This document shows, piece by piece, positions 7,785 through 60,668 of a stretch of DNA of 64,000 nucleotides. Numbering within the stretch: position 1 is the stretch's first letter; each line of letters starts with the position of its first letter. Origin of the DNA: an uncultured Candidatus Saccharibacteria bacterium (lineage in GTDB: Bacteria > Patescibacteriota > Minisyncoccia > Phycocordibacterales > UBA9988). The notes under the pieces were generated by a model. The model did no database searches, was not told the DNA's origin, and saw only the letters and a list, made by a program, of their open reading frames with translations. The stretch is taken from assembly GCA_964401135.1 (NCBI GenBank), contig CAYNXC010000002.1, positions 16,457 through 80,456 on the forward strand, written 5' to 3'. The position numbers and the translations under genes are program-made.

Positions 7785-7859
<75 letters not shown>

Positions 7860-7944
7860 CGATGAAAAACGCCAATACTACATTGGCGTTTTTCTGTTTT
7901 TATGGCACTATGGGAGTCGTCAGGAGAGAGATAGAAAATGTCTT

Positions 7945-8018
7945 GCCGGGGTAGCTCAGTCGGTTAGAGCGTGGGACTCATAAACCCAAGGTCGTGAGTT
8001 CGATTCTCACCCCCGGCA
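7945..8018 (+). tRNA. tRNA-Met or tRNA-Ile2 (anticodon CAT, elongator type).
   Basis: Acceptor stem GCCGGGG/CCCCGGC and anticodon loop ACTCATAAA. The G1-C72 pair rules out an initiator. Confidence 0.75.
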
Positions 8019-8065
8019 CGAGGTTCCTGTATATTCTTTGAGCTTTTTGCTAGGATGATGTCGTT

Positions 8066-8142
8066 GCAGATGTAGCTCAACTGGTTAGAGCACCCGCCTG
8101 TCACGCGGGAGGTTGCGGGTTCAAGTCCCGTCGTCTGCGCCA
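8066..8142 (+). tRNA. tRNA-Asp (GTC).
   Basis: Near-identical to canonical bacterial tRNA-Asp. Anticodon loop CCTGTCACG, CCA encoded. Confidence 0.85.
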
Positions 8143-8223
8143 GTTCTTAATGTTTAAGGACAGCCCTAAAACATTCACCAGAGGCGAATGTTCGGGCGGA
8201 CAATTTCCATAGGAAACTGTTTT

Positions 8224-8296
8224 GCCGTTGTAGCTCAGTTGGTAGAGCAACTCCATGGTAAGGAGTAGGTCGTCGGTTCAATTCCGACCAACGGCT
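8224..8296 (+). tRNA. tRNA-Thr (GGT).
   Basis: Acceptor GCCGTTG/CAACGGC, anticodon stem ACTCC/GGAGT and loop ATGGTAA. Confidence 0.8.
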
Positions 8297-8308
8297 CATA
8301 ACAATAAG

Positions 8309-8381
8309 GCCACCTTAGCTCAGTTGGCAGAGCGGCGCATTCGTAACGCGCAGGTCCCCAGTCCGATTCTGGGAGGTGGCT
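8309..8381 (+). tRNA. tRNA-Thr (CGT).
   Basis: Anticodon arm GCGCATTCGTAACGCGC resembles E. coli thrW. T-arm is CCCAG/CTGGG. Confidence 0.75.
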
Positions 8382-8431
8382 CAACATAAGTCTTATTCCA
8401 CCGTTTTGCGGATATATCCTGCTCGTATATA

Positions 8432-32503: not shown

Positions 32504-32588
32504 GGAGGGGTCGCATAGAGGCCTAGTGCGCGCGCTTGGAAAGCGCGTAAGGGTTACACCTTCGAGGGTTCGAATCCCTCCCTCTCCG
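32504..32588 (+). tRNA. tRNA-Ser (GGA), class II with a long variable arm.
   Basis: Acceptor GGAGGGG/CCTCTCC, anticodon stem CGCGC/GCGCG, loop TTGGAAA, variable hairpin AAGG-GTTACA-CCTT and T-arm GAGGG/CCCTC. Confidence 0.8.
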
Positions 32589-32666
32589 CACTAAGAACCT
32601 GGTAGTTTTGTGACCCAAGTACCTAAGGTTGTAGGGCGACCCAGGTACCTAGTAATTACCTGGAAA

Positions 32667-33911
32667 ATGCCCGACGAATATCGCAATCATCATTACGTAC
32701 CACAGTGGTACCAAAAGAAGTTCATGCTACCGAACGAGCATGAGTTATTTCACTTGGATTTAAAACCCGAGACGTTCACCGATCCTCGCGGCGTGGTTCA
32801 TACCAAGAAGCCATTACGGCGACAAGGTAGTAAAAAGTGTTTCGTCCAAGAGGATCTTTATACGACGAAGATTCAAGGTATCGAAACAAAGGATATAGAG
32901 AAATATTTCTTCGGCGATATTGATACCAAAGGTCGTCCTGCTGTCGAATATTTCGAGGGGTTTGATTATCCCCTTAAACCCTGGGGTGAATCACTTCAGG
33001 ACATCATGCGTTACATGAGTACACAGAAGCTCAGGACTCCGAAAGGTCTATCATTTCTTAGCGAGAAAATTGGAAGTAAGGATAAGGACGCGATTCTACG
33101 CAATATGATCCGAGTGCGTAATGTTCATGCCGCTATTTGGATGGAATGCGTCTGGCTTATTGCAGACGCTTCACAGTCGGAGACTAAATTCATCATCTCA
33201 GACCATCCCGTTACTGTTTATAATCGTGAATGCGGTCCTCGATCCAGTTACTGTCGAGACTCAAATGACCCCGAGATATGGCTTCAAGGTACGCATACAA
33301 TTTTTCCACTTTCCATAGATAAGGTTCTCATTCTCACAAATTTATCCTGGGTGCGGAATCCATATCAATCCGCAACCAATCTACGACCGAATCCAAATCC
33401 ATACCGCAATGCGATATTCAAATTTACTGACGTTCAGGTTCGACGACAATTAAGTGAACAAGAGGTACGAGAAATCAATTTCATCATAAAAAGCCGAGCT
33501 TCCCGATATGTAGCCGCAGCCAAAGAAGAATGGCTTTACCCAGAAAGACATGTATCCAAATCAGATTGGAACAAATACGGTCATGGATATCTTTTGATGC
33601 CCGATCCTCGCGCTATTCATTGGGGAGGAACCATAATGTGGGGCGGTGGCCCAGGCGGTCCAGGTGCAATGGATGAATATGGAAGACTGCCCGGAGATCC
33701 TGATTTTGAAGCAGAGACAACCAAAGGTAAGGAGTACCAAACGCTCCCTTGGTTTCAGGGAGAATTTGCAAAGCTGTTCGGTCCTTATCGCCGAGGCCGT
33801 TGTATGCAACATATTGAAATTGAAAAGGAACGGGACGATGATGAATTTCACCAGTACCATCTCGGTCTTCAGAAAAAGAGCTATAAGGAACGACACGGCA
33901 AGAAGAAATAG
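32667..33911 (+). CDS. DUF4238 family protein (HHYVPQ and SDHPV motifs). Cargo of the tRNA-Ser-adjacent island.
   Basis: The N-terminal RNHHYVPQWYQKKF and the central KFIISDHPVTV match the two hallmark motifs of DUF4238. The track ORF starts at 32610, but 32667 (MPDEY) is more plausible. Confidence 0.55.
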   Translation: MPDEYRNHHYVPQWYQKKFMLPNEHELFHLDLKPETFTDPRGVVHTKKPLRRQGSKKCFVQEDLYTTKIQGIETKDIEKYFFGDIDTKGRPAVEYFEGFDYPLKPWGESLQDIMRYMSTQKLRTPKGLSFLSEKIGSKDKDAILRNMIRVRNVHAAIWMECVWLIADASQSETKFIISDHPVTVYNRECGPRSSYCRDSNDPEIWLQGTHTIFPLSIDKVLILTNLSWVRNPYQSATNLRPNPNPYRNAIFKFTDVQVRRQLSEQEVREINFIIKSRASRYVAAAKEEWLYPERHVSKSDWNKYGHGYLLMPDPRAIHWGGTIMWGGGPGGPGAMDEYGRLPGDPDFEAETTKGKEYQTLPWFQGEFAKLFGPYRRGRCMQHIEIEKERDDDEFHQYHLGLQKKSYKERHGKKK

Positions 33912-33914
33912 TTT

Positions 33915-35225
33915 TTAGTTGGAGTCCTCTGTAAGCAGAGTAATCTTCTTATCGTTCAGCACCAATCTGCTTCTTAGATGACCCATCAGTTCACGCTTCT
34001 CAAGCGGTGTACCCTCGCGGAGTACGTATTTTGCATATTCCTTTGTCGCAATATCGTCTTCATCGATCTGCATCTTGGGCTTGCCTTTGACCGCAAGTCT
34101 CTGCAATCTATTGAATCGCTTAATTTCTTCTTCGAGCTTCATCCGCATGCCAAGCTCGTTCATGGTGAGCTTGTCGATAATCTTGAATAGTTCCTCGACG
34201 AGTTCTTCCTCGCGGATATATTTGTTCTTGCAGTTCCTGTCTCTCGCTTTCGAGCAAGAGTAGTAGACGTACTTTGCATTCGTGCCATCTTTGAGCAGTT
34301 TGTATTTCTCCTGCGCCGTGATGCCCGATCCGCACATGCCACAGGTAAATAATTTGGTGAAGGCAAACTCTCTGTTCTCGCGCACAACTTTGTCGCGCTT
34401 CAATTGCTCCTGCACTTTCTTGAATAATTCCTCGCTGATTAGCGGCTCATGTGTTCCTTGATACCAGTTGCCGCTGTTCTTTGGATACTCGAATGGTCCG
34501 TAATAAATGGGCATCTGGAGCATGCGATATACACCAGAGAGTGTGAGTGGCTTGTTACCTCGCGTATAGAAGTTAAGCTCGAAACGGAGCCAGTTGTACA
34601 CTTTTCTACCGCTCCACAAATCGTATGCCACTTTTTCAAACATCTGCTTCACGATCGGTGCACGTTGCGGATCAATAACGATACGGCATTTCTTTTCTAT
34701 CAATTTCTGGTTGAGATATCCGAGCGGCGCCATGCCCGGCCACAACCCCATCTCCACTCTCGTTCTCAAACCTCGCTTCACGTTGATGCCCCGGTTGTCG
34801 TTCTCGAGCTTCGCCTGCGATCCAAGGATCATGAGGAGGAATTTTTCATTCGGATTATTAGTAAACTTTTGTCCGTAGGTGCGTATTTCCTTGAGCTTTC
34901 CAACGTCCATAAGATCGATCACTTTGCCGAGGTCGCCTGCGTTACGGCTGATGCGATCCGGCGCCCATGTGAGGATACCGTTGTATTTGTCATCCCTAAT
35001 TTCTTCGATGATCTCGTTAAATACAGGGCGCTGGCCAGTCTCCTTGGCGGAGTGAGATTCTCGCTTCATTGTCACAACTTCCAAATTTTCTCGCTCTGCT
35101 AGCTGGAGCATCTCCTTGATCTGGGAATCGATAGAAAGCGCCTGTCGTTCCTCCGCTTCGCTCGACTTGCGGGCATACAGGCAATATCTGATTGGTTTCT
35201 GTTCCTTTACGGTTGCGTTTTCCAT
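33915..35225 (-). CDS. Large serine recombinase (integrase).
   Basis: N-terminal resolvase catalytic domain (YARKSS catalytic Ser, DRISRN), a recombinase domain, and a Cys4 zinc ribbon (CGMCGS...CSKARDRNC) with a coiled-coil tail. 436 aa. Confidence 0.85.
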   Translation of the reverse strand: MENATVKEQKPIRYCLYARKSSEAEERQALSIDSQIKEMLQLAERENLEVVTMKRESHSAKETGQRPVFNEIIEEIRDDKYNGILTWAPDRISRNAGDLGKVIDLMDVGKLKEIRTYGQKFTNNPNEKFLLMILGSQAKLENDNRGINVKRGLRTRVEMGLWPGMAPLGYLNQKLIEKKCRIVIDPQRAPIVKQMFEKVAYDLWSGRKVYNWLRFELNFYTRGNKPLTLSGVYRMLQMPIYYGPFEYPKNSGNWYQGTHEPLISEELFKKVQEQLKRDKVVRENREFAFTKLFTCGMCGSGITAQEKYKLLKDGTNAKYVYYSCSKARDRNCKNKYIREEELVEELFKIIDKLTMNELGMRMKLEEEIKRFNRLQRLAVKGKPKMQIDEDDIATKEYAKYVLREGTPLEKRELMGHLRSRLVLNDKKITLLTEDSN

Positions 35226-35349
35226 GCATACACGAACATACCGGATACGGGTACGAAGTCTAGCCGCATACGAAACACAGAGCAGAAGCGGGAGGAAGTC
35301 AACTACACAAAAATCCCGAGGGAAGCTAAGGTCTTTTAGGGGGTGAGAA

Positions 35350-35562
35350 TTAAAAACTAATGAGATTGTTCACTTTAAGCCCTAGTGCTTTGGCGATCTT
35401 CTCCATGTTGGTGAGTGTAATGTTTTTCTCGGCACGTTCAATCATACCGATGTATGTCCTGTGGACTTTAGCCAACTGCCCTAAGCGCTCTTGAGAAATA
35501 TCGCGTTTCAGTCGTTCTTCTCGGACTCTTTTGCCAAATTGTATGAGAATAGTCTTGTTCAT
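35350..35562 (-). CDS. XRE-family HTH transcriptional regulator (cI/Cro-like repressor).
   Basis: 70 aa with the HTH_3 motif (SQERLGQLAKVHRTYIGMIERAEKNITLTNMEKIAKAL). Confidence 0.8.
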   Translation of the reverse strand: MNKTILIQFGKRVREERLKRDISQERLGQLAKVHRTYIGMIERAEKNITLTNMEKIAKALGLKVNNLISF

Positions 35563-35586
35563 CTACACCGTTAAGTGTAGGAATTT

Positions 35587-35651
35587 GCTAACTTTGGTTC
35601 TATATACTATAGTTAGCATATATTCTTGAGAATTTTCATTGCAAAATTCTC
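35587..35651. promoter_or_regulatory. Two palindromic candidate operators in the divergent region between the XRE gene and the surface-protein gene.
   Basis: GCTAACT-N17-AGTTAGC at 35587..35617 and GAGAATTTT-N6-AAAATTCTC at 35628..35651. Confidence 0.4.
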
Positions 35652-35661
35652 GGGGGGGGGG
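35652..35661 (+). repeat. G10 homopolymeric tract 20 nt upstream of the ATG of the surface-protein gene.
   Basis: cGGGGGGGGGGtaaaattgagaacaatattcATG. It abuts operator palindrome 2. Confidence 0.9.
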
Positions 35662-35681
35662 TAAAATTGAGAACAATATTC

Positions 35682-36521
35682 ATGAATAAAATCTTTAAAA
35701 GACTACTCGTATTTGCGGTACTATTTGCTCTTACTTCTTCGAATGTTTTTGCTGCAACTAAAACCTGGGACTTTTCCACTTCGTCGGACTACACTTTTGA
35801 TACTACTAAAATTGAAGTCATAGGAGGACAAGCACAATTGAAAGCTACAACAACTCCTGCTTGGTATGACACCAGTTGGAAATATAGAAAGAAAATATCA
35901 ATTGACCATACAAAAATATCGTCAGATTTAACAGATTTTCCTGTTCTCGTTAATCAAACTTCTGACTCAGACTTGGCAGCCAAAGCGTTAACGTCAGGTA
36001 ACGATATATTTTTCACTTCATCTGATGGAGTTACAAAACTAAGCCACGAAATAGAGACATATGCATCAACAACAGGAGCTTTAGCTGCATGGATTAAAGT
36101 TCCTACAGTATCCTCTTCTGTAGATACTGATGTTTATATGTATTATGGTAATGCTGCAGCTTCTGCTCAAGCGAATGCAAATGGAGTATGGGATAGTAAT
36201 TCAATTGTTGTTCAACATCTTAATGCTACTACTAGCCCAGCACTAGACTCAACATCTAATGCGAATAGTGGAGTTCAGTCTGGAGGAGTTACTTTCAGTG
36301 CAACAGGCAAGATAGGTAATGCTGTGAGCATGGACGGTGTTAATGACAAACTATCCTTAACAAGTAATAGTGGCTTAAACGCAACAGGCACCCTAAGTAT
36401 TAGTGCATGGGTAAATAGAACTGCATCGGGCAAGATGAGGGTAGTTGCAAAAACAGTTACTACTGGAACAACTGACAACCCATATGATTTTGGTATAAAT
36501 ACGGATAATACACTTTATTTA
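35682..36521 (+). pseudogene. 5' fragment (about 280 codons) of a large secreted DUF2341/LamG-like surface-protein gene, interrupted by IS insertion.
   Basis: Signal peptide MNKIFKRLLVFAVLFALTSSNVFAA, a DUF2341-like WKYRKKISIDHTKISSDLTDFPVLV, and a LamG-like region. The frame runs into the IS left inverted repeat and stops 9 codons later. Confidence 0.75.
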
Positions 36522-36551
36522 AGGGAACTATATACAATGTTACCCTAAAAA

Positions 36552-37085
36552 TTAATTAGATTTTGGTTTGTCTAAATCTTCCAAAGAAAAGCCCAGGTCA
36601 GGAAAAATAAGATTTCTTAGATAAATACTCCCTGCAAAAAGAACGGTATTAATATCAACTCCAGACTGGAAAGCCCCTTGTTTGAGTGATTCTACAACAT
36701 CAGGACAATGTATTGGTAACTCCATCATTATCTCGGATATTACTTTCTCTGCATCATAAGGATTAGTCGTATTTTTACTTTGAACTAATTTTAGAAGTTC
36801 GTCTTTTTTTGCGTCAATAATTTCTTTAATTCCGCTATCATCTAAGATAGCTTGCCCTCTTGAGTTTAATTGTCGTGGAGAATTAGCAGGTGCAATTTTG
36901 TCTTTCCATAGAATATCCAGTTTAGGGAACATATCTGCCACTTTGGGTTTAATGTCTTTAATATCTTCCAGCATAAAATTTGTTCTTTCATCAATCCTCG
37001 CAATCAATTCACGAGTATTACCCAACAGGATAGCAGAAATCCAGTTACCTGCTTTTTTGGCTAAATTAAGGGCTTGTTGTTCCAT
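36552..37085 (-). CDS. Hypothetical 177-aa passenger protein of the IS element, function unknown.
   Basis: Intact ORF between IRL and the transposase gene, on the opposite strand. No motif recognised. Confidence 0.5.
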   Translation of the reverse strand: MEQQALNLAKKAGNWISAILLGNTRELIARIDERTNFMLEDIKDIKPKVADMFPKLDILWKDKIAPANSPRQLNSRGQAILDDSGIKEIIDAKKDELLKLVQSKNTTNPYDAEKVISEIMMELPIHCPDVVESLKQGAFQSGVDINTVLFAGSIYLRNLIFPDLGFSLEDLDKPKSN

Positions 37086-37197
37086 AGGATTATTACATTA
37101 CTAGTATATCAAAACGGCTGTTGCAAGTTAATACTAGTCAAAAAGTTACCCCCAATTATTACTTGACAACCCTATTGTGATCGTATAAGCTATAGGT

Positions 37198-38115
37198 ATG
37201 GATAGCCGATACAAAACCTTGGTAGAGTTCCTCGCCCACTTTAAGGATGAGGAAACCTGTCAAAAATACTTTGAGCAAATCCGCTTCTCCCAAGGCGAGT
37301 ATTGCCCTCATTGTAACCACAGTAAAATCAACCGCTTTTCAGACGGCAAACGCTTTCGCTGTGCTAAGTGCAAAAAGGACTTCACTATTAAGACCAAGAC
37401 CGTCTTTGGCGAAAGCAAAATCTCAATGCAGAAATGGTTTGTCGCAATTTACCTTTTGTCCGTCAATAAGAAAGGCATTAGCTCTATTAACCTAGCCGAG
37501 CAAGTGGGCGTTACTCAAAAGACCGCGTGGTTTATGGATCATCGTATTCGTAAAGCCTTGAAACAAAATAGCGGTCAGTTGTTTGGCACAGTAGAAATAG
37601 ACGAAACCTATATCGGCGGCAAGGAAAAGAACAAGCACGCCCACAAGCGAACCAAGCGCACCCAAGGCCGAAACACTTTGACCAAAACCCCTGTAATGGG
37701 AATGATACAGCGAGGCGGTGCAATGAAAGCCAAAGTGATAGATAATGTAAAGATGCGAACCTTGGAAAGTCTGATTATTGAAAATGTAAAAATTGGGACA
37801 CAGCTCTACACAGACGAGTTTTTGTCTTACTCCAAAATCGGCAGTCTCTTTGCTCACGAGGCCGTGTCACACGGCAAAGGCCAGTATGTAAAAGGTGATA
37901 GCCACTCCAACACCGCCGAGAGTTTTTGGGCATTGTTTAAGCGTGGCTACTACGGCACTTACCACAACATGAGTAAGAAGCATTTGCAGAAGTATGTGGA
38001 CGAGTTCGTGTATCGCTTTAACAACCGAGCCGTGGAGCTAGCCGATGTATTCACTGATGTCGTGGCGAATGTAGCGGGTAGCGAGAAGCTGGCTTATAAG
38101 ACTCTTACCGCTTAA
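37198..38115 (+). CDS. IS1595-family DDE transposase.
   Basis: N-terminal zinc ribbon (CPHCNHSKI...FRCAKCKKDF), VEIDETYIGGKEKNKH, SNTAESFWALFKRGYYGTYH and YVDEFVYRFNNR blocks characteristic of IS1595/ISXO2-like transposases. Confidence 0.85.
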   Translation: MDSRYKTLVEFLAHFKDEETCQKYFEQIRFSQGEYCPHCNHSKINRFSDGKRFRCAKCKKDFTIKTKTVFGESKISMQKWFVAIYLLSVNKKGISSINLAEQVGVTQKTAWFMDHRIRKALKQNSGQLFGTVEIDETYIGGKEKNKHAHKRTKRTQGRNTLTKTPVMGMIQRGGAMKAKVIDNVKMRTLESLIIENVKIGTQLYTDEFLSYSKIGSLFAHEAVSHGKGQYVKGDSHSNTAESFWALFKRGYYGTYHNMSKKHLQKYVDEFVYRFNNRAVELADVFTDVVANVAGSEKLAYKTLTA

Positions 38116-38116
38116 T

Positions 38117-39025
38117 ATGTCCCCACGAGAACGCAAATATCACGAGGGGTTAGGGGTAGACTTTAATCAAGCTCTTGTCTCTATTGCTGGTGAGAACCGA
38201 ACCGAGCGGAGTATCGCCGCCCGACCATTTCTAAAGTGGGTCGGTGGCAAGCGGTCAATCCTGCCAGAGCTTCTAAAGCGGTTGCCGACCAAGTATGACG
38301 CTTACCATGAGCTGTTTCTAGGCGGTGGTGCGTTGTACTTCGCCGTCCAGCCAGAGGAGGCTTATCTGTCTGATGTAAACTTCCACCTCATCCTTACTTT
38401 CAAGGCGGTGCGAGATGATCTGGACAGCTTAATCCGTCAGTTAAAAATCCACGAACGATTACACAACAAGGAATACTATCTCAAAGCTCGCCAGAAGCTC
38501 TTTAAGGAAAAGGACACCACCAAACTGGCGGCTCTCTTTATCTACCTCAATAAAACTTGCTTCAATGGTCTTTACCGAGTAAACAAGGGGGGTGGCTTCA
38601 ATGTCCCGATGGGCGACTACAAAGACCCAAACATTTTAGACGAGGAAAATCTGCGTAATGCTTCAAAGGTTTTAGCGACCGCCGAGATTAAACAGCACGG
38701 CTTTGAGCATACCAAAATCTACAAAGGCGACTTCTACTATCTTGACCCGCCCTATCACGAAACCTATAGCGGTTATGATGGCTCTGGCTTTGGCGATGAA
38801 CACCACCGCAAGCTCGCCGAGTTCTGCAAACAGATAGACCAAAAGGGCAGTTACTTTATGCTCTCCAACAGCGACACGCCATTTGTCAGAGAGTTATATA
38901 AGGGCTATACTATTGAGCAAGTAGAGGCTTCACGAAATGTCTCTTGCAAAGCCCACCAGCGAGGCAAAGAAAATGAGCTTATCATCCGAAACTACACCAA
39001 TAACGGGGGGCGGACAAGCCAATAA
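38117..39025 (+). CDS. Dam-family N6-adenine DNA methyltransferase (alpha class).
   Basis: FLKWVGGKRSILPELL (SAM-binding motif I) and YYLDPPY (motif IV). About 300 aa. Confidence 0.85.
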   Translation: MSPRERKYHEGLGVDFNQALVSIAGENRTERSIAARPFLKWVGGKRSILPELLKRLPTKYDAYHELFLGGGALYFAVQPEEAYLSDVNFHLILTFKAVRDDLDSLIRQLKIHERLHNKEYYLKARQKLFKEKDTTKLAALFIYLNKTCFNGLYRVNKGGGFNVPMGDYKDPNILDEENLRNASKVLATAEIKQHGFEHTKIYKGDFYYLDPPYHETYSGYDGSGFGDEHHRKLAEFCKQIDQKGSYFMLSNSDTPFVRELYKGYTIEQVEASRNVSCKAHQRGKENELIIRNYTNNGGRTSQ

Positions 39026-39473
39026 AACGGGCAGTGTTTTAGAGCTATTTATCAAGCGACTTTTAGAGGACAACGGCTACACCGCCTTTCCTAACCACAA
39101 AGCCCAGCTATTCGCCAATCGTAAAACTGTCGGTGGTAAGCAATACTCTACCCAAGTTCCTTGTGGTACGAGTATCTACGAAACCCAGCGTAAATGCGAC
39201 TTCTTGATCATGAACCAAGACAAGTTCCCCGATGGACTGGTGATTGAGTGCAAGTGGCAACAGTCTACTGGCTCGGTAGACGAGAAGTACCCTTTTACCT
39301 TGTTTAACATCATCAAGATCGGCGTGCCAACCATCATTCTGCTGGACGGCAACGGCTACAAAAAGGCGGCGATGAAGTGGTTAAAAGACCAAGTGAACCC
39401 ACAGAGAGCCTTAATCGGCGTTTACAATATGGCCGAGTTTCAAGCTATGGTAAATAAGGGGTTTTTAGGTTAG
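38937..39473 (+). CDS. Short PD-(D/E)XK nuclease, the putative restriction endonuclease partner of the Dam methylase.
   Basis: CDFLIM...GLVIECKWQ gives a D...ExK core. It overlaps the 3' end of the methylase gene (possible true start M13 at 38973), and its stop is inside the IRR. Confidence 0.55.
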   Translation: MSLAKPTSEAKKMSLSSETTPITGGGQANKTGSVLELFIKRLLEDNGYTAFPNHKAQLFANRKTVGGKQYSTQVPCGTSIYETQRKCDFLIMNQDKFPDGLVIECKWQQSTGSVDEKYPFTLFNIIKIGVPTIILLDGNGYKKAAMKWLKDQVNPQRALIGVYNMAEFQAMVNKGFLG

Positions 39474-39490
39474 GGTAACTTTGTATATAA

Positions 39491-42190
39491 TTCCCTTATT
39501 TAAATCGTGCAGATTCAAGTGTTGTAAATTTTCTATCAAGTTCAACAACTGTACCGACAAATTCATGGACAAAAATTGAAGTAATTGATGACACTGTCGT
39601 TAAAAGTGCTTTCAACAGCGTCTCAAAATTAGTCACCCTAGCGACATCTACAAGAGCGTGGCAGGGGGTAGCAAGTGATGGGACTTATATCTATGCAATT
39701 GGACAAAATGCTATTTCGCAGTTTGATATGCAAGGTAATTTTATAAAAGAAAAGAATAATGTATACAGTGGTTTTACTGGTGGCAACATCCTAGGTAATG
39801 GAACAGTAATTAATGGAAAGTTATATGTCGGGGCATATAATGCGAATACTTTAGGAGCGTCAACAAATCCTAATTACACTCCGTTATCAGATCTTCAATC
39901 AAAAATTGCTGTCTTTAGCCTATCTGATTTTTCATTAATTGAAGATTTTAACCTTGGTACTCAAGTAAAAATTGCTGAGGGTGTTGATTATCACAATGGT
40001 TACTTTTGGGTAGTTGATGGATGGTTTGATACTTTCGTCGTAAAAAAATACGATACTAGTTTTAATTTAGTCTCTACGTATAGCTTGCCTGTAGCAAATG
40101 CTTTCGCTGGAGAATTAACATACCAAAATATTAATTGGTATGGGAATGACATTTTTGTTAATTGGCATGGCTCAAATTCTTTTGGACAAACCTATGCTTA
40201 TGGGTTGGATCATTATTCTTTTGACGGAACAAATTTTAATTTTGTAGAACGATTAAGACCAGTAACATATGGTGCAGGTCAAGGTATTGCAATTGTCGGA
40301 AATACGTTTTATTGGGCAGATAGACCTGGAAATGCGATCTACAAATCAACATATGTTGGAGCTGGAAATGGTGATGATGGTATTGATCCATCACATACAA
40401 AATTTTTCATAAATGGAGTTGGTGAGCTTGCTCATGTAAGTACTGGCTCTCTCACTGTGCTTTCACCTACAAGTAATACCAGTCCAACGGTTATTGGAAC
40501 TAGGGGCGATTCAAGTAGTTTTTATAAAGGTGTCATAGATGAAGTTCGAATTTCAAATGCGGCAAGATCAGATGCATGGGTCTCGGCAAGTTACGCCAAT
40601 GAAAACTCACCAAGTACATTCTATTCGATGGGTTCGGAACAAAAAAATTATGCAGCTACTAACCCGACTGTTAATCCCACATCATTAAATGCGCAAGCCT
40701 TCTCATCCCTGTCAGGCTTTTCAGCAGTTGAAGTAAGTAATGGAGGAAATATAAAGTATCAAGTTTCAAATGATGGAGGAACCACATGGTATTGGTACAA
40801 CTCTGGCTGGAATACAACAACTTCAGGATACTCTGAGACAAATGCATCTTCAACTATAAATACAAATATCGCTTCTTTACCTGTAGGAAGTGGATCATAC
40901 TTATTTAAAGCATATTTAAATTCTGATGGAACGCAGCAACCTCAGATAGACAGTGTGGTGCTCACATACTCTGCGCCACTTGATATTACAGCTCCTATTA
41001 TATCTGCGATAGCGTCTTCTACATCCCAAACTTCAGCAACTATTACCTGGACGACCGATGAATCAGCCACATCAACGGTAAATTATGGTCTTAACACTTC
41101 ATACGGTACAGCGTCATCCTCATCATCTCTCGTTACCTCTCATTCGATATCCTTGTCAGGATTAACCGCATCAACCGCATACCATTTCCAAGTAGCATCA
41201 GCTGACGCTTCTGGAAACGTTGCAACTTCTTCAGACTATACATTCACCACAACAGCAGTGCCTGACACAACGCCTCCGGTCATTTCATCAATTTCTTCCG
41301 GTTCACTTTCAACTTCAGGAACAACTATAACTTGGACCACTGATGAAGCTGCGGATTCCCAAGTTAACTACGGCACAAGTGCCTCATATGGATCACAGAC
41401 GACCCTTGATTCAACACTAGTGACGAGTCACTCCATTGTAATTTCAGGTCTTTCTGCAGGAACGACGTATCACTACCAAGTAGTGTCAAAAGATGCTTCT
41501 GGAAACACAGCTACATCTTCTGACCAAACCTTTACCACTTCAGCACAGCCTTCGAGCGGGGGTTCATCAAGCGGATCATATTCCGGAGGAGGCTCAATCC
41601 TTATCCAACCTTCTGTGCCGGGCTGTCCTACAGGATTCAATTGTGTAGTAAATCCAACCCCTACCATTTTACCAAATACTTTTACTCGTGATCTCACCAT
41701 AAAAAGTACTGGTAGTGATGTGAAGGTATTGCAGCAGTTCCTGATCGCTAAAGGCTTTCTTGCGAGCGGCAATGACACGGGATACTTTGGTCCTCTGACG
41801 CAAGCTGCTCTCGCGCAATACCAGCTTTCGATGGGTATTAAACCATCGGTTGGATATTTCGGCTCACTTACTCGTGCAGTCATTGCTGTCTCGCAGAACA
41901 TATCACCTACTACTCCATCAATATCAACAAATCCGACGGTACTTCCAAGCACGTTTACTCGAGATCTGTATTTCGGCATGAGTGGAGACGATGTAAAACT
42001 CTTGCAAAAGTTCCTTAATGACCATCAATTTATAGTCAGCCAAACTGGCGCAGGATCTCCAGGACTTGAATCAAATTATTTCGGCCCAGCCACCCGAGAC
42101 GCCCTTATTCGTTTTCAGACTTACAATCACATAGTCCCTGCAGTAGGGTATTTTGGTTCGCTTACACGCCAATTCGTAAATGGTCAGTAG
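39491..42190 (+). pseudogene. 3' portion (about 896 codons) of the IS-interrupted surface-protein gene, with two FN3-like domains and two peptidoglycan-binding (PG_binding_1-like) domains.
   Basis: The frame is open from 39491, immediately after the IRR. ITWTTDESATSTVNYG...AYHFQVASADASGN occurs twice (FN3/PAP-N-like), and GSDVKVLQQFL...YFGPLTQAAL occurs twice (PG-binding). The track ORF starts at an internal ATG, 39728. Confidence 0.75.
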
Positions 42191-42233
42191 GAGTGGATAA
42201 CCCGACTACACAAATCTAAAGAAGGAAGCTAAG

Positions 42234-42596
42234 TTACTTACGTTCGTCCTCAGGCCATGGCTTTGGGCCGAACATCTCGTCGATCTTCTTGATCTCGTCT
42301 TCTGTAAGTTCGCGCTTCGGAGGCCGTTCCGGTACTGGGTCTCCTTTGTACTTCGGCGGCTTTCCGTCCATATGCTCCCAGATGAGCTTGATCATCCGAT
42401 GATCGCCGTCCAGTGCCATCCTTATGATTTTCTCAACCAACGCATCTGCAATAGTCTTGTCTTTATCACTCACAATCCTTTTACTGAGTATCTCTTGGAA
42501 TTGGCTCGTTAGTGTTTTGCCCGGAGGCCTTCCGTTCAAGTTTCTTCTCGGGTCGAATCCGCTTTGGAATGGCTTGAGGTTATTGATGTTGCCCAT
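42234..42596 (-). CDS. Small basic protein with an N-terminal LKPFQSGFDPRRNLNGRP motif (DUF5681-like / AT-hook-like). Tandem paralogue 1.
   Basis: Start placed at MGNINNLKPF by alignment with the neighbouring paralogue. Confidence 0.5.
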   Translation of the reverse strand: MGNINNLKPFQSGFDPRRNLNGRPPGKTLTSQFQEILSKRIVSDKDKTIADALVEKIIRMALDGDHRMIKLIWEHMDGKPPKYKGDPVPERPPKRELTEDEIKKIDEMFGPKPWPEDERK

Positions 42597-42945
42597 GGTC
42601 GTTTCGTTTAAAATACTTCTCAAAATCCGCCTGTTCTTCGGGCGTGTACTCGACCTTTTCTTGCGGTACAAATGGGGTAGGTACCACAAACTCGTCAGGC
42701 ACCTTGCCGTCCACTTGGTCGATGACCATACTCATGGCTTTCAGGTTGCCCTTGGCCGCCTTCCACACAAGCTGCATTACGATAGCCTTATCCTTCCGTG
42801 CCATCTTGCCGTTGAAGTAGACTTTCTCCTTCAATATTTCCATAATCACGGTTCTCACATTCCGAGAACCCTTCGGTCTACCCTTGGTATTCCTTCTTGG
42901 ATCGTACCCTGATTGAAAGGGCTTCAATGTTTTTATATTTCCCAT
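42580..42945 (-). CDS. Small basic protein with an N-terminal LKPFQSGYDPRRNTKGRPKGSRN motif. Tandem paralogue 2.
   Basis: Start placed at MGNIKTLKPF. The shared N-terminal motif and the central helical block align with paralogue 1. Overlaps paralogue 1 by 17 bp. Confidence 0.5.
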   Translation of the reverse strand: MGNIKTLKPFQSGYDPRRNTKGRPKGSRNVRTVIMEILKEKVYFNGKMARKDKAIVMQLVWKAAKGNLKAMSMVIDQVDGKVPDEFVVPTPFVPQEKVEYTPEEQADFEKYFKRNDHGQHQ

Positions 42946-43252
42946 ATCTGGTATTTTACCGGCTTTTTTGTTTGTAAAGGGGTGCATTACTTTCTCGCAG
43001 TTATTTTCACAGATAAAAGGGTGAAAAACGGCTTCTTTTAAGCCTTCGATTTTTCCCGTAATTTCACAGTATTTACGGGTATTTTGACCCCGACCCACAA
43101 ACCTCCTTCGGCTTCCCGAAAAAGTGCTAGAATACCCTTACGACACCTAATCATATGGGTACCGTACCCATAGCCCCCGCAAATTGAAACTTCCTGTTCC
43201 GAAAGCCGAATTGACCGTTGCATGAATAGTATTATCGTCCTAATATATATAC

Positions 43253-57262: not shown

Positions 57263-57486
57263 GTTAGTATATAATGGCCTCAATGTCTATAGGGTATCAA
57301 CTAATGTTCAAACGGCGATGAGCTAGAGGGATATGTCTGGTGCTCGAGAGCCGCTTGAACGAAGCGGATTTTTTTACCCCAGCGACAGAAGACTTTCTTT
57401 GAAAACTGAATAGCAGGTAACATCTGTAAAGAGAATTAGAATTGTAAGAGAAAGATGATGTAAAGATTTCCTAATAGGAAATGGCG

Positions 57487-60468
<2,982 letters not shown>

Positions 60469-60530
60469 TCCTATTAGGAAACCTCTACATCATTTATCGT
60501 TCTCTTCACTCTGATCTTCTGTATTTTGTT

Positions 60531-60628
60531 CTGGTGGTTTGGTGGAGGGGTCACACCCGGCTCCATTCCGAACCCGGCAGTTAAGCCCTCTAGCGCCGAT
60601 GATACTCGTAAGGGGAAAGTAGGTGACC
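60531..60628 (+). rRNA. rrf: 5S ribosomal RNA.
   Basis: Helix I CTGGTGG/CCGCCAG, and CCATTCCGAACCCGGCAGTTAAGCCC conserved loop C/helix III sequence. Confidence 0.85.
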
Positions 60629-60668
60629 GCCAGAACAAAGTTCAGAAGATCTGCTATACTTATATAAT

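Follow-up and report, generated by a model that had tools for sequence, protein, structure and literature searches.

A probable transporter insertion sequence of the IS1595 family with a Dam-type methylase and a small nuclease in a surface-protein gene of a Candidatus Saccharibacteria bacterium

A 2,973-bp element was delimited at positions 36523-39495 of a 64,000-nucleotide stretch of contig CAYNXC010000002.1 (assembly GCA_964401135.1, positions 16,457 to 80,456), which derives from an uncultured Candidatus Saccharibacteria bacterium. The whole of this stretch is referred to as the window, and all coordinates are given in it. The element has the ends GGG...CCC (36523 and 39495) and encodes a transposase, a Dam-family methylase, a PD-(D/E)XK nuclease and a 177-aa protein, ORF177. 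The latter three genes all lie between its left and right terminal inverted repeats (IRL and IRR). A second copy of the insertion sequence (IS) was absent from the window. The element interrupts a gene for a putative secreted surface protein, and the following features were assigned at the locus:

35667..36522, plus strand: 5' fragment of the host gene, encoding a signal peptide, DUF2341 and the beginning of Laminin_G_3, based on profiles and the reconstruction.
36515..36522, no strand: left copy of the target-site duplication, TTATTTAA, identical to 39496-39503.
36523..36548, plus strand: IRL, GGGAACTATATACAATGTTACCCTAA, with 24/26 positions matching IRR and with the same sequence at the ends of related elements.
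36552-37085, minus strand: ORF177, 177 aa, a gene without family in a variable slot, encoding a long N-terminal helix and a helical domain.
37103..37131, minus strand: promoter-like site of ORF177 (TTAACT, 17-nt spacer, TATACT with TG), oriented away from the transposase promoter and based on a consensus match alone.
37163..37191, plus strand: putative operon promoter, consisting of a -35 TTGACA (37163-37168), ACCC, a variable 5-mer, TGATC, 3 nt and a -10-like TAAGCT (37186-37191).
37198..38115, plus strand: transposase of the IS1595 family (305 aa), in which an N-terminal zinc ribbon precedes a DDE domain, based on curated profiles.
38117..39025, plus strand: Dam-family, DpnM-like N6-adenine methyltransferase, 302 aa, starting 1 nt past the transposase stop.
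38973..39473, plus strand: PD-(D/E)XK nuclease (PDDEXK_11), 166 aa, a putative GATC endonuclease overlapping the dam 3' end by 53 nt.
39470..39495, minus strand: IRR, whose reverse complement is GGGAATTATATACAAAGTTACCCTAA, based on the repeat search and on relatives.
39496..39503, no strand: right copy of the target-site duplication, TTATTTAA, based on its identity with the left copy.
39504..42190, plus strand: 3' fragment of the host gene, with a propeller-like region, the end of Laminin_G_3, two FN3-like domains and two PG_binding_1 stretches.

A repeat search of the window returned one long inverted pair, with arms at 36514-36548 and 39470-39504. These arms were parsed as 26-bp terminal inverted repeats, matching at 24 of 26 positions and with an IRL that begins GGGAAC, next to an 8-bp target duplication. 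The original prediction had described 27-bp repeats (25/27) around a 2,975-bp segment (36522-39496), flanked by a 6-bp duplication, TATTTA. The present parse was preferred because all 23 related complete elements end in GGG...CCC, and 20 of 24 complete elements, the window copy included, have perfect 8-bp duplications. The outermost A/T pair of the longer repeats thus belongs to the duplication, TTATTTAA, which also includes the T and A that flank TATTTA. Both parses of the ends lead to the identical reconstructed junction. A target duplication of 8 bp is the norm for the IS1595 family, and the ends, GGGAAyTAT, resemble what we take to be the consensus of the ISNwi1 group ('ggnnatTAT'), a lead only. 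With up to 6 mismatches allowed, no further copy of the terminal repeat was found in the 64-kb window besides IRL and IRR. Both copies bound the element, as opposed to a dispersal of such repeats at loci without a transposase.

The reading frame of the 5' host fragment continues into the left repeat, where it ends at a TAA (36546-36548), and the 3' fragment is open in frame from the junction onward. The nuclease stop codon (TAG, 39471-39473) lies inside the right repeat; both stops had been predicted at these places. Deletion of the element and one duplication copy yielded a single open frame at 35667-42190, with a length divisible by 3, whose empty junction reads ACACTTTATTTAAATCGTGCAG (also written ...GATAATACACTTTATTTAAATCGTGCAGATTC...). 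This frame comprises 1,180 codons from a TTG start and 1,175 from the first ATG, consistent with the predicted exact in-frame join to a secreted protein of about 1,175 aa. The reconstructed protein contains DUF2341, Laminin_G_3, two FN3-like domains and two PG_binding_1 stretches. The insertion cuts through a single Laminin_G_3 domain: the 5' fragment matches profile positions 1-58 up to the junction, the 3' fragment matches positions 89-151, and the joined protein scored 52 bits against this profile versus 31 bits for the 3' fragment alone. Because one Laminin_G_3 domain is divided between the fragments, the two host open reading frames (ORFs) represent one gene and not a natural two-gene arrangement, a possibility that had been raised with the original prediction.

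The sequence comes from a metagenome assembly, and the contig of a second assembly ends about 300 bp past the element, which could suggest that the locus is an assembly chimera or that the host ORFs are naturally separate genes. However, both junctions were reproduced in the Logan assembly of run SRR10580904, although its reads may not be independent of those of the window. The two duplication copies are identical, the reconstructed frame runs through a divided LamG domain without the gain or loss of a base, and junctions of this kind were seen at 20 other sites. An artefact or a two-gene origin is therefore considered extremely improbable.

The host fragments showed no further stops or frameshifts over 3.5 kb. 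Since the duplication is perfect and the host frame is undamaged, the insertion is probably recent in evolutionary terms, in line with the clean and recent event originally proposed. The presence in the window of 23S and 5S rRNA genes (57477-60635) and a five-tRNA cluster (7785-8382) indicates a chromosomal location, and neither a plasmid nor a phage. As reconstructed, transposition into the AT-rich site TTATTTAA appears to have inactivated a gene for a secreted LamG/FN3/peptidoglycan-binding protein on the chromosome of a bacterium of the candidate phyla radiation (CPR), probably one of the Paceibacteria. Two points tell against this account of the insertion. An empty-site allele, proposed earlier as a check, was not found when metagenome contigs were scanned with 413 aa spanning the junction; the sole match was a distant homolog (L024, 53% identity) that starts after the junction and is hence uninformative. 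Moreover, the basis for recency and for single-gene ancestry is evidence internal to the locus. Confidence in the structure of the element, its family membership and its recent, clean insertion is high.

The transposase scored well above the cutoffs of profiles NF033547 (199.6 bits, cutoff 75), PF12762 (149.6 bits, cutoff 27; 9e-44) and the zinc ribbon PF12760 (42.6 bits, cutoff 25.4; residues 16-60). The genes for transposase, Dam and nuclease form a compact operon, with a 1-nt gap, a 53-nt overlap and a nuclease stop inside IRR. The proposal of an IS1595 element with three passenger genes thus held for the transposase, the Dam methylase and the nuclease, while the remaining gene, ORF177, was found outside the conserved unit, in a variable slot. 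Insertion sequences with passenger genes, or transporter IS (tIS), are recognised for the IS1595 and IS66 families in passages of bioRxiv 10.1101/2021.05.26.445724 and of PMC3129680, the latter citing Siguier, Gagnevin and Chandler 2009. The present element is very likely an intact tIS of the IS1595 family that carries a module of the restriction-modification (R-M) type.

Relatives of the transposase number in the thousands. The best 120 were 66-100% identical and came mostly from Paceibacteria and other CPR sources; many of these were located on contigs of 2.4-3 kb, as expected of repeats that are assembled separately from their surroundings. A scan with the nuclease profile gave 271 matches in species-representative genomes and 7 in IMG/VR, and 87 loci were examined. 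The contexts of the relatives showed the same trio of transposase, Dam and PDDEXK_11 nuclease inside the same 26-bp ends, and 24 complete elements, including that in the window, were delimited by these ends. Their duplications are AT-rich, for example TTATCTAG, CTTATTAT, ATAGTTTT, GTTTTTGA, ATAATTTT and TAAAATTA. Identities of the three proteins to those of the window copy were pairwise correlated (r = 0.85-0.92). Since transposase, Dam and nuclease identities rise and fall together, the trio evolves as a unit.

Complete elements were detected in CPR lineages (Paceibacterota, Saccharibacteria, Colwellbacteria, Moraniibacteriota and Uhrbacteria) and in metagenome-assembled genomes assigned to Verrucomicrobiota, Acidobacteriota, Planctomycetes, Desulfobaccales, Gammaproteobacteria, Bdellovibrionales and Vulcanimicrobiota. 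They also occurred in phage-like contexts, with RusA, HNH and CHAP genes or with D5 primase and Lar, and on IMG/VR contigs. Elements that were 97.7% identical were found at different sites in different samples (L008/L029 and L009), and those in a Moraniibacteriota bin (L030) and a Bdellovibrionales bin (L031) shared 92% nucleotide identity. Such near-identical elements across phyla or samples reflect either very recent horizontal spread or binning error.

The occurrence of the unit at 20 or more independent sites in many lineages and the 97.7%-identical elements at different sites point indirectly to mobility of the family. An immobile, fixed relic, in which the R-M module has become a domesticated host defence flanked by old IS ends, would fit the presence of one copy in the 64-kb window, the failure to find an empty site in the metagenome contigs and the occurrence of Dam-nuclease loci without a transposase, which shows that the module can outlive the IS. 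In contrast, the transposase is full length and above its family cutoffs, the 8-bp duplication is perfect, the host fragments are free of further stops or frameshifts and a 97.7%-identical relative (L008 and L009) was located at a different site in another sample, so that a relic is unlikely. Against a mobile, widely distributed family it has to be considered that 4 of the 24 complete elements had no 8-bp duplication, possibly as a result of recombination between copies, adjacent deletions or post-insertion mutation, and that some of the phylum assignments rest on metagenome bins, in which contigs may have been misplaced.

Both inverted repeats without a matching 8-bp duplication were observed at L023, L026, L030, L044 and L054; at L030, the copies were off by one base.

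The methylase scored 286 bits against TIGR00571 (cutoff 114.85). Its best solved relative was DpnM of the pneumococcal DpnII system (2dpm, 3e-57), followed by E. coli Dam and T4 Dam. The motifs FxGxG (as FLGGG) and DPPY were present, as was the hairpin FNGLYRVN...FNVP, which corresponds to the GATC-contacting hairpin of Dam structures. The nuclease, for which an alternative ATG is available at 38937, matched PF20472 (PDDEXK_11) at 2.9e-38. Residues D76 and E92-C-K94, the catalytic residues of the PD-(D/E)XK motif, were invariant across 64 homologs, as expected for the restriction-enzyme fold. In addition, the nuclease aligned to positions 142-265 of 278 of the DpnII profile (PF04556; E = 4e-4 to 5e-4), and 48 of the 64 family members matched this profile at E <= 0.01, with a best value of 1.6e-6. 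One nuclease homolog is labelled 'DpnII family type II restriction endonuclease' by NCBI. These profile matches indicate that the nuclease is probably a remote relative of DpnII and no member of PF04556.

In approximately 83 of the 87 surveyed loci, the nuclease gene adjoins a Dam-family gene, whether a transposase is present or not. About 38 cyanobacterial genomes, mainly of Nostocales, encode a convergent Dam-nuclease pair without transposase or repeats. The pair was also found alone in Holosporales bins and in one complete Paceibacterota chromosome, and beside an Abi gene on an Alicyclobacillus plasmid, which was the sole match when the plasmid collection was searched with the nuclease; a search of the phage collection returned no match. 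Because the pair occurs without any transposase, it is interpreted as an R-M-like module and not as an accessory of transposition.

A role of the nuclease as a transposition accessory akin to TnsA of Tn7, a nuclease of the restriction-enzyme fold that cleaves the second strand at the ends of the element, with Dam as an orphan regulatory methylase, would be compatible with the unusually small size of the nuclease for a type II enzyme, with the position of its stop codon inside IRR and with its strict co-inheritance with the transposase in the IS clade; its DpnII match below the gathering score would also agree. However, the transposase-free and repeat-free pairs in Nostocales, in Holosporales, on the Paceibacterota chromosome and on the Alicyclobacillus plasmid show a much steadier association of the nuclease with Dam than with the transposase. 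Transposition of ordinary IS1595 elements, furthermore, proceeds without a nuclease partner. In view of the widespread Dam-nuclease pairs without a transposase, the TnsA-like role was rejected as very improbable.

The interpretation of the cargo as a miniature DpnII-type type II R-M module has good support from these sequence comparisons. It is weakened by the DpnII-profile score of 20 bits versus a gathering score of 23, obtained with the C-terminal half alone, and by the length of the nuclease, about 60% of that of DpnII, with cleavage of GATC deduced from its partner and from remote homology. In the proposed scheme, the DpnM-like methylase would protect GATC, and the 166-aa nuclease, equivalent to the catalytic half of DpnII, would cut unmethylated GATC. 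By analogy with known type II R-M systems, the module may defend its host against unmethylated DNA. On the same analogy it may also render the element addictive, as methylation would be diluted upon loss of the element and the DNA of the cell would then be cut.

Cultured heterocystous cyanobacteria (Nostoc, Calothrix, Tolypothrix, Anabaena and others; L066-L103) carried nucleases about 40% identical to that of the window. GATC sites were scarce around some elements: the flanks of L003 (1-4887 and 7299-10918; phage-like, 8.5 kb) contained 1 GATC where about 25 were expected, and those of L045 contained 7 where about 28 were expected. The 64-kb window contained 240, with 315 expected. This strong avoidance of GATC in the flanks of L003 and L045 is consistent with GATC restriction as a real pressure in these communities.

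In the putative operon promoter, which is of sigma-70-like type, a GATC (37179-37182) lies between the -35 and -10 elements, upstream of the transposase start codon at 37198. The arrangement TTGACAaCCC-N5-TGATC occurred with fixed spacing in 26 of 26 distinct main-clade elements, with transposase identities down to 59%, and the five columns between TTGACAaCCC and TGATC varied freely among them. In relatives with an extra plus-strand ORF 5' of the transposase gene, the conserved promoter precedes that ORF. Three of four distant transposase-Dam-nuclease elements (39-48% transposase identity) also had a GATC in the -35/-10 core, at other positions and in different promoters. This conservation suggests, with moderate confidence, that the element's own methylase controls the activity of the transposase promoter.

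Some observations argue against such control. One distant element (L060) has no promoter GATC, and the conserved promoter motif is missing from Dam-nuclease loci that stand alone; in the latter, GATC 5' of dam was found at 10 of 16 loci, about chance at most by an informal estimate. The conservation of TGATC could also have a cause other than methylation. The GATC might be part of an operator, bound by the zinc-ribbon/helix-turn-helix region of the transposase or by a host factor, or might be a promoter element. The adjoining TTGACAACCC is equally invariant, so that the whole block could be one binding site, and the elements and stand-alone loci that are without the motif agree with this explanation. 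On the other hand, the invariant tetranucleotide is the predicted target of a methylase encoded 1 kb downstream, and the 5-mer that separates ACCC from TGATC is free to vary. Because distant elements with different promoters keep a GATC at other positions in the -35/-10 core, the conservation appears to concern the GATC site itself, and not a particular operator. IS10 and IS50 provide precedents (PMC4265352). A GATC unrelated to methylation is, on balance, rather unlikely.

For IS10/Tn10 and IS50/Tn5, Dam-sensitive transposase promoters are described in a passage of PMC4265352 (Roberts et al. 1985; Yin et al. 1988). For the present family, the element's own methylase would probably set the activity of the single promoter from which all three genes of the operon are expressed. 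On the model of IS10 and IS50, this promoter would be stronger in the un- or hemimethylated state and weaker once fully methylated. Expression would then be highest when the element enters a naive cell and immediately after replication, and the resulting feedback would provide methylase homeostasis and confine transposition to those moments.

Upstream of the promoter, a DnaA-box-like sequence, TTATCCACA, was rejected as a family feature: exact boxes occurred in 5 of 25 elements and were absent from the other 20, the window copy among them. The exact boxes (TTATCCACA or its complement) were located 15-27 nt upstream of the -35 element in L003, L023, L025, L028 and L030. Several other elements had a variant with one mismatch, TTATCCCCA, and the window had a degenerate version, GTTACCCCCAAT, at 37143-37156.

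The interval between IRL and the promoter (36549-37153, about 600 bp) constitutes the variable slot. The core at 37154-39495 showed approximately 78% nucleotide identity to the closest relatives, L025 and L007, whereas the first 631 bp of the window element, except for IRL, were unrelated to them. GC content was 0.33-0.35 in the slot and ORF177 versus 0.43-0.52 in the core. In relatives, the same interval measured approximately 60-100 bp (three-gene elements of 2.39-2.44 kb) or 300-1,050 bp with different genes. The latter encoded Cys-rich proteins with '...SQAGxGRHKCxxCAYxxGF' repeats, a 235-aa membrane protein, or pairs of ~100-aa and ~80-aa proteins of which one member had a C-terminal transmembrane helix; a Pfam search of the relatives' slot proteins yielded no family. 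Cys-rich slot proteins of 56-185 aa, with one or two copies of the motif 'APxEVxxxLPxSQAGxGRHKCxxCAYxxGF', were observed in L032, L034, L035, L041, L042, L050 and L052, and may be zinc-binding regulators or anti-restriction factors. A relic internal IRL beside the promoter was considered as a route of cargo capture and was discarded, as its best match, 16 of 26 positions, was unconvincing.

The predicted structure of ORF177 combines an extended N-terminal helix with a compact helical domain (predicted local distance difference test score, pLDDT, of 87), and a fold comparison with this structure gave no informative match. Its relatives comprise about 1,250 cluster representatives at 50% identity, most of which are single genes on CPR chromosomes with differing neighbours, for example flanked by yebC and ruvC or by a ybaK-like gene and UDG, or located downstream of trmD. 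One element (L023; transposase 70-71% identical) carried a 42%-identical ORF177 homolog in the same slot. From these comparisons, ORF177 appears to have been acquired from a CPR genome of low GC content. The ORF177 family (L013-L022 and L113-L119) is widespread, single-copy and without annotation, and often adjoins nucleic-acid-related genes.

A tentative extension of these interpretations, which we regard as possible but hold with less than even confidence, is that of a self-contained 'epigenetic' transposon. Such an element would bring an IS10-like switch into any host, including Dam-less CPR bacteria and phages, its nuclease would punish loss, and its slot would be exchangeable. The slot would then carry lineage-specific accessory genes, including those for ORF177, the Cys-rich 'RHKCxxCAY' proteins and small membrane proteins.

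The interrupted gene is located in a region, window 32504-43098, that resembles an integrated island, with the order tRNA-Ser, DUF4238, serine recombinase, XRE regulator, surface-protein gene and DUF5681 pair. A search for att-like direct repeats flanking this serine-recombinase island found none. Besides the fragments of the surface-protein gene, it contains:

32504-32589: tRNA-Ser.
32610-33911: DUF4238 gene.
33915-35225, minus strand: large serine recombinase.
35350-35562, minus strand: XRE regulator.
42234-43098, minus strand: two overlapping paralogous DUF5681 genes.

Within the surface protein, Laminin_G_3 is seemingly broken by a nested insertion of ~280 aa (36200-36522 and 39504-41700; reconstructed residues ~190-650). 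This nested region is repeat-rich and propeller-like (…GTYIYAIGQ…GYFWVVDGW…TFYWADRPG…), and it was the sole part of the protein conserved in L024.

The view that R-M systems act as selfish mobile elements is a long-standing one. To our knowledge, there are few clear cases of an R-M pair as an integral, co-evolving part of an autonomous transposon. The full-text literature on IS1595 elements with R-M, passenger or Dam genes, on PF20472 and on R-M in CPR bacteria, with ISfinder and REBASE outside the scope of the search, contained no description of the lineage, and the element family is thus apparently both widespread and undescribed. It offers dozens of natural insertions with exact ends, in several phyla including the little-understood CPR bacteria and their phages, for studying the spread of defence systems, and current annotation labels these units as three unrelated genes. 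If the nuclease cuts GATC, its 166 aa would make it an unusually small type II enzyme, and the cultured heterocystous cyanobacteria with a Dam-PDDEXK_11 pair are tractable organisms for establishing enzyme specificity. The invariant promoter GATC, in turn, provides a testable hypothesis for a transposon-borne sensor of the cell cycle or of a new host.

The element shares with IS1595-family tIS a single DDE transposase with a zinc ribbon, short imperfect repeats, an 8-bp duplication and passengers inside the repeats. Unlike in known tIS, the passengers form a complete R-M-like pair whose evolution is coupled to that of the transposase in many phyla, and a separate exchangeable slot is present. 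R-M genes in transposon-like units have been catalogued (Furuta, Abe and Kobayashi 2010; PMC2853133), among them a unit of Neisseria gonorrhoeae that has 26-bp repeats and an 8-bp duplication and contains a type IIG gene, which is truncated, and a COG3677 transposase homolog that seems to be inactive. That unit and the present element both have R-M genes inside inverted repeats, an 8-bp duplication and an adjacent IS1/IS1595-type transposase homolog. In contrast to the single N. gonorrhoeae instance, the genes are intact here, the R-M pair is type IIP-like and related to DpnII, and there are dozens of independent insertions. The DpnII system of Streptococcus pneumoniae is resembled in the close DpnM relative, the predicted GATC target and the nuclease match to the R.DpnII (PF04556) profile. 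However, the nuclease is without the N-terminal half (166 versus ~280 aa) and belongs to a separate, uncharacterised Pfam family, PDDEXK_11; the element encodes no second methylase, and the system is located on an IS. As in IS10 and IS50, a GATC is present in the transposase promoter core, and transposase expression is proposed to occur in the un- or hemimethylated state; those elements rely on host Dam, whereas this family encodes its own methylase in the transposase transcript, plus a nuclease. R-M systems such as CfrBI are autoregulated via a methylated site in their own promoter, and the element likewise has a cognate site in the promoter of its methylase operon. Unlike in CfrBI, a conserved GATC promoter was found only where the transposase is the first gene. 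Compared with these known units, the new aspects are the intact parts, their co-divergence over a wide host range, the minimal nuclease, the cognate promoter site and the slot.

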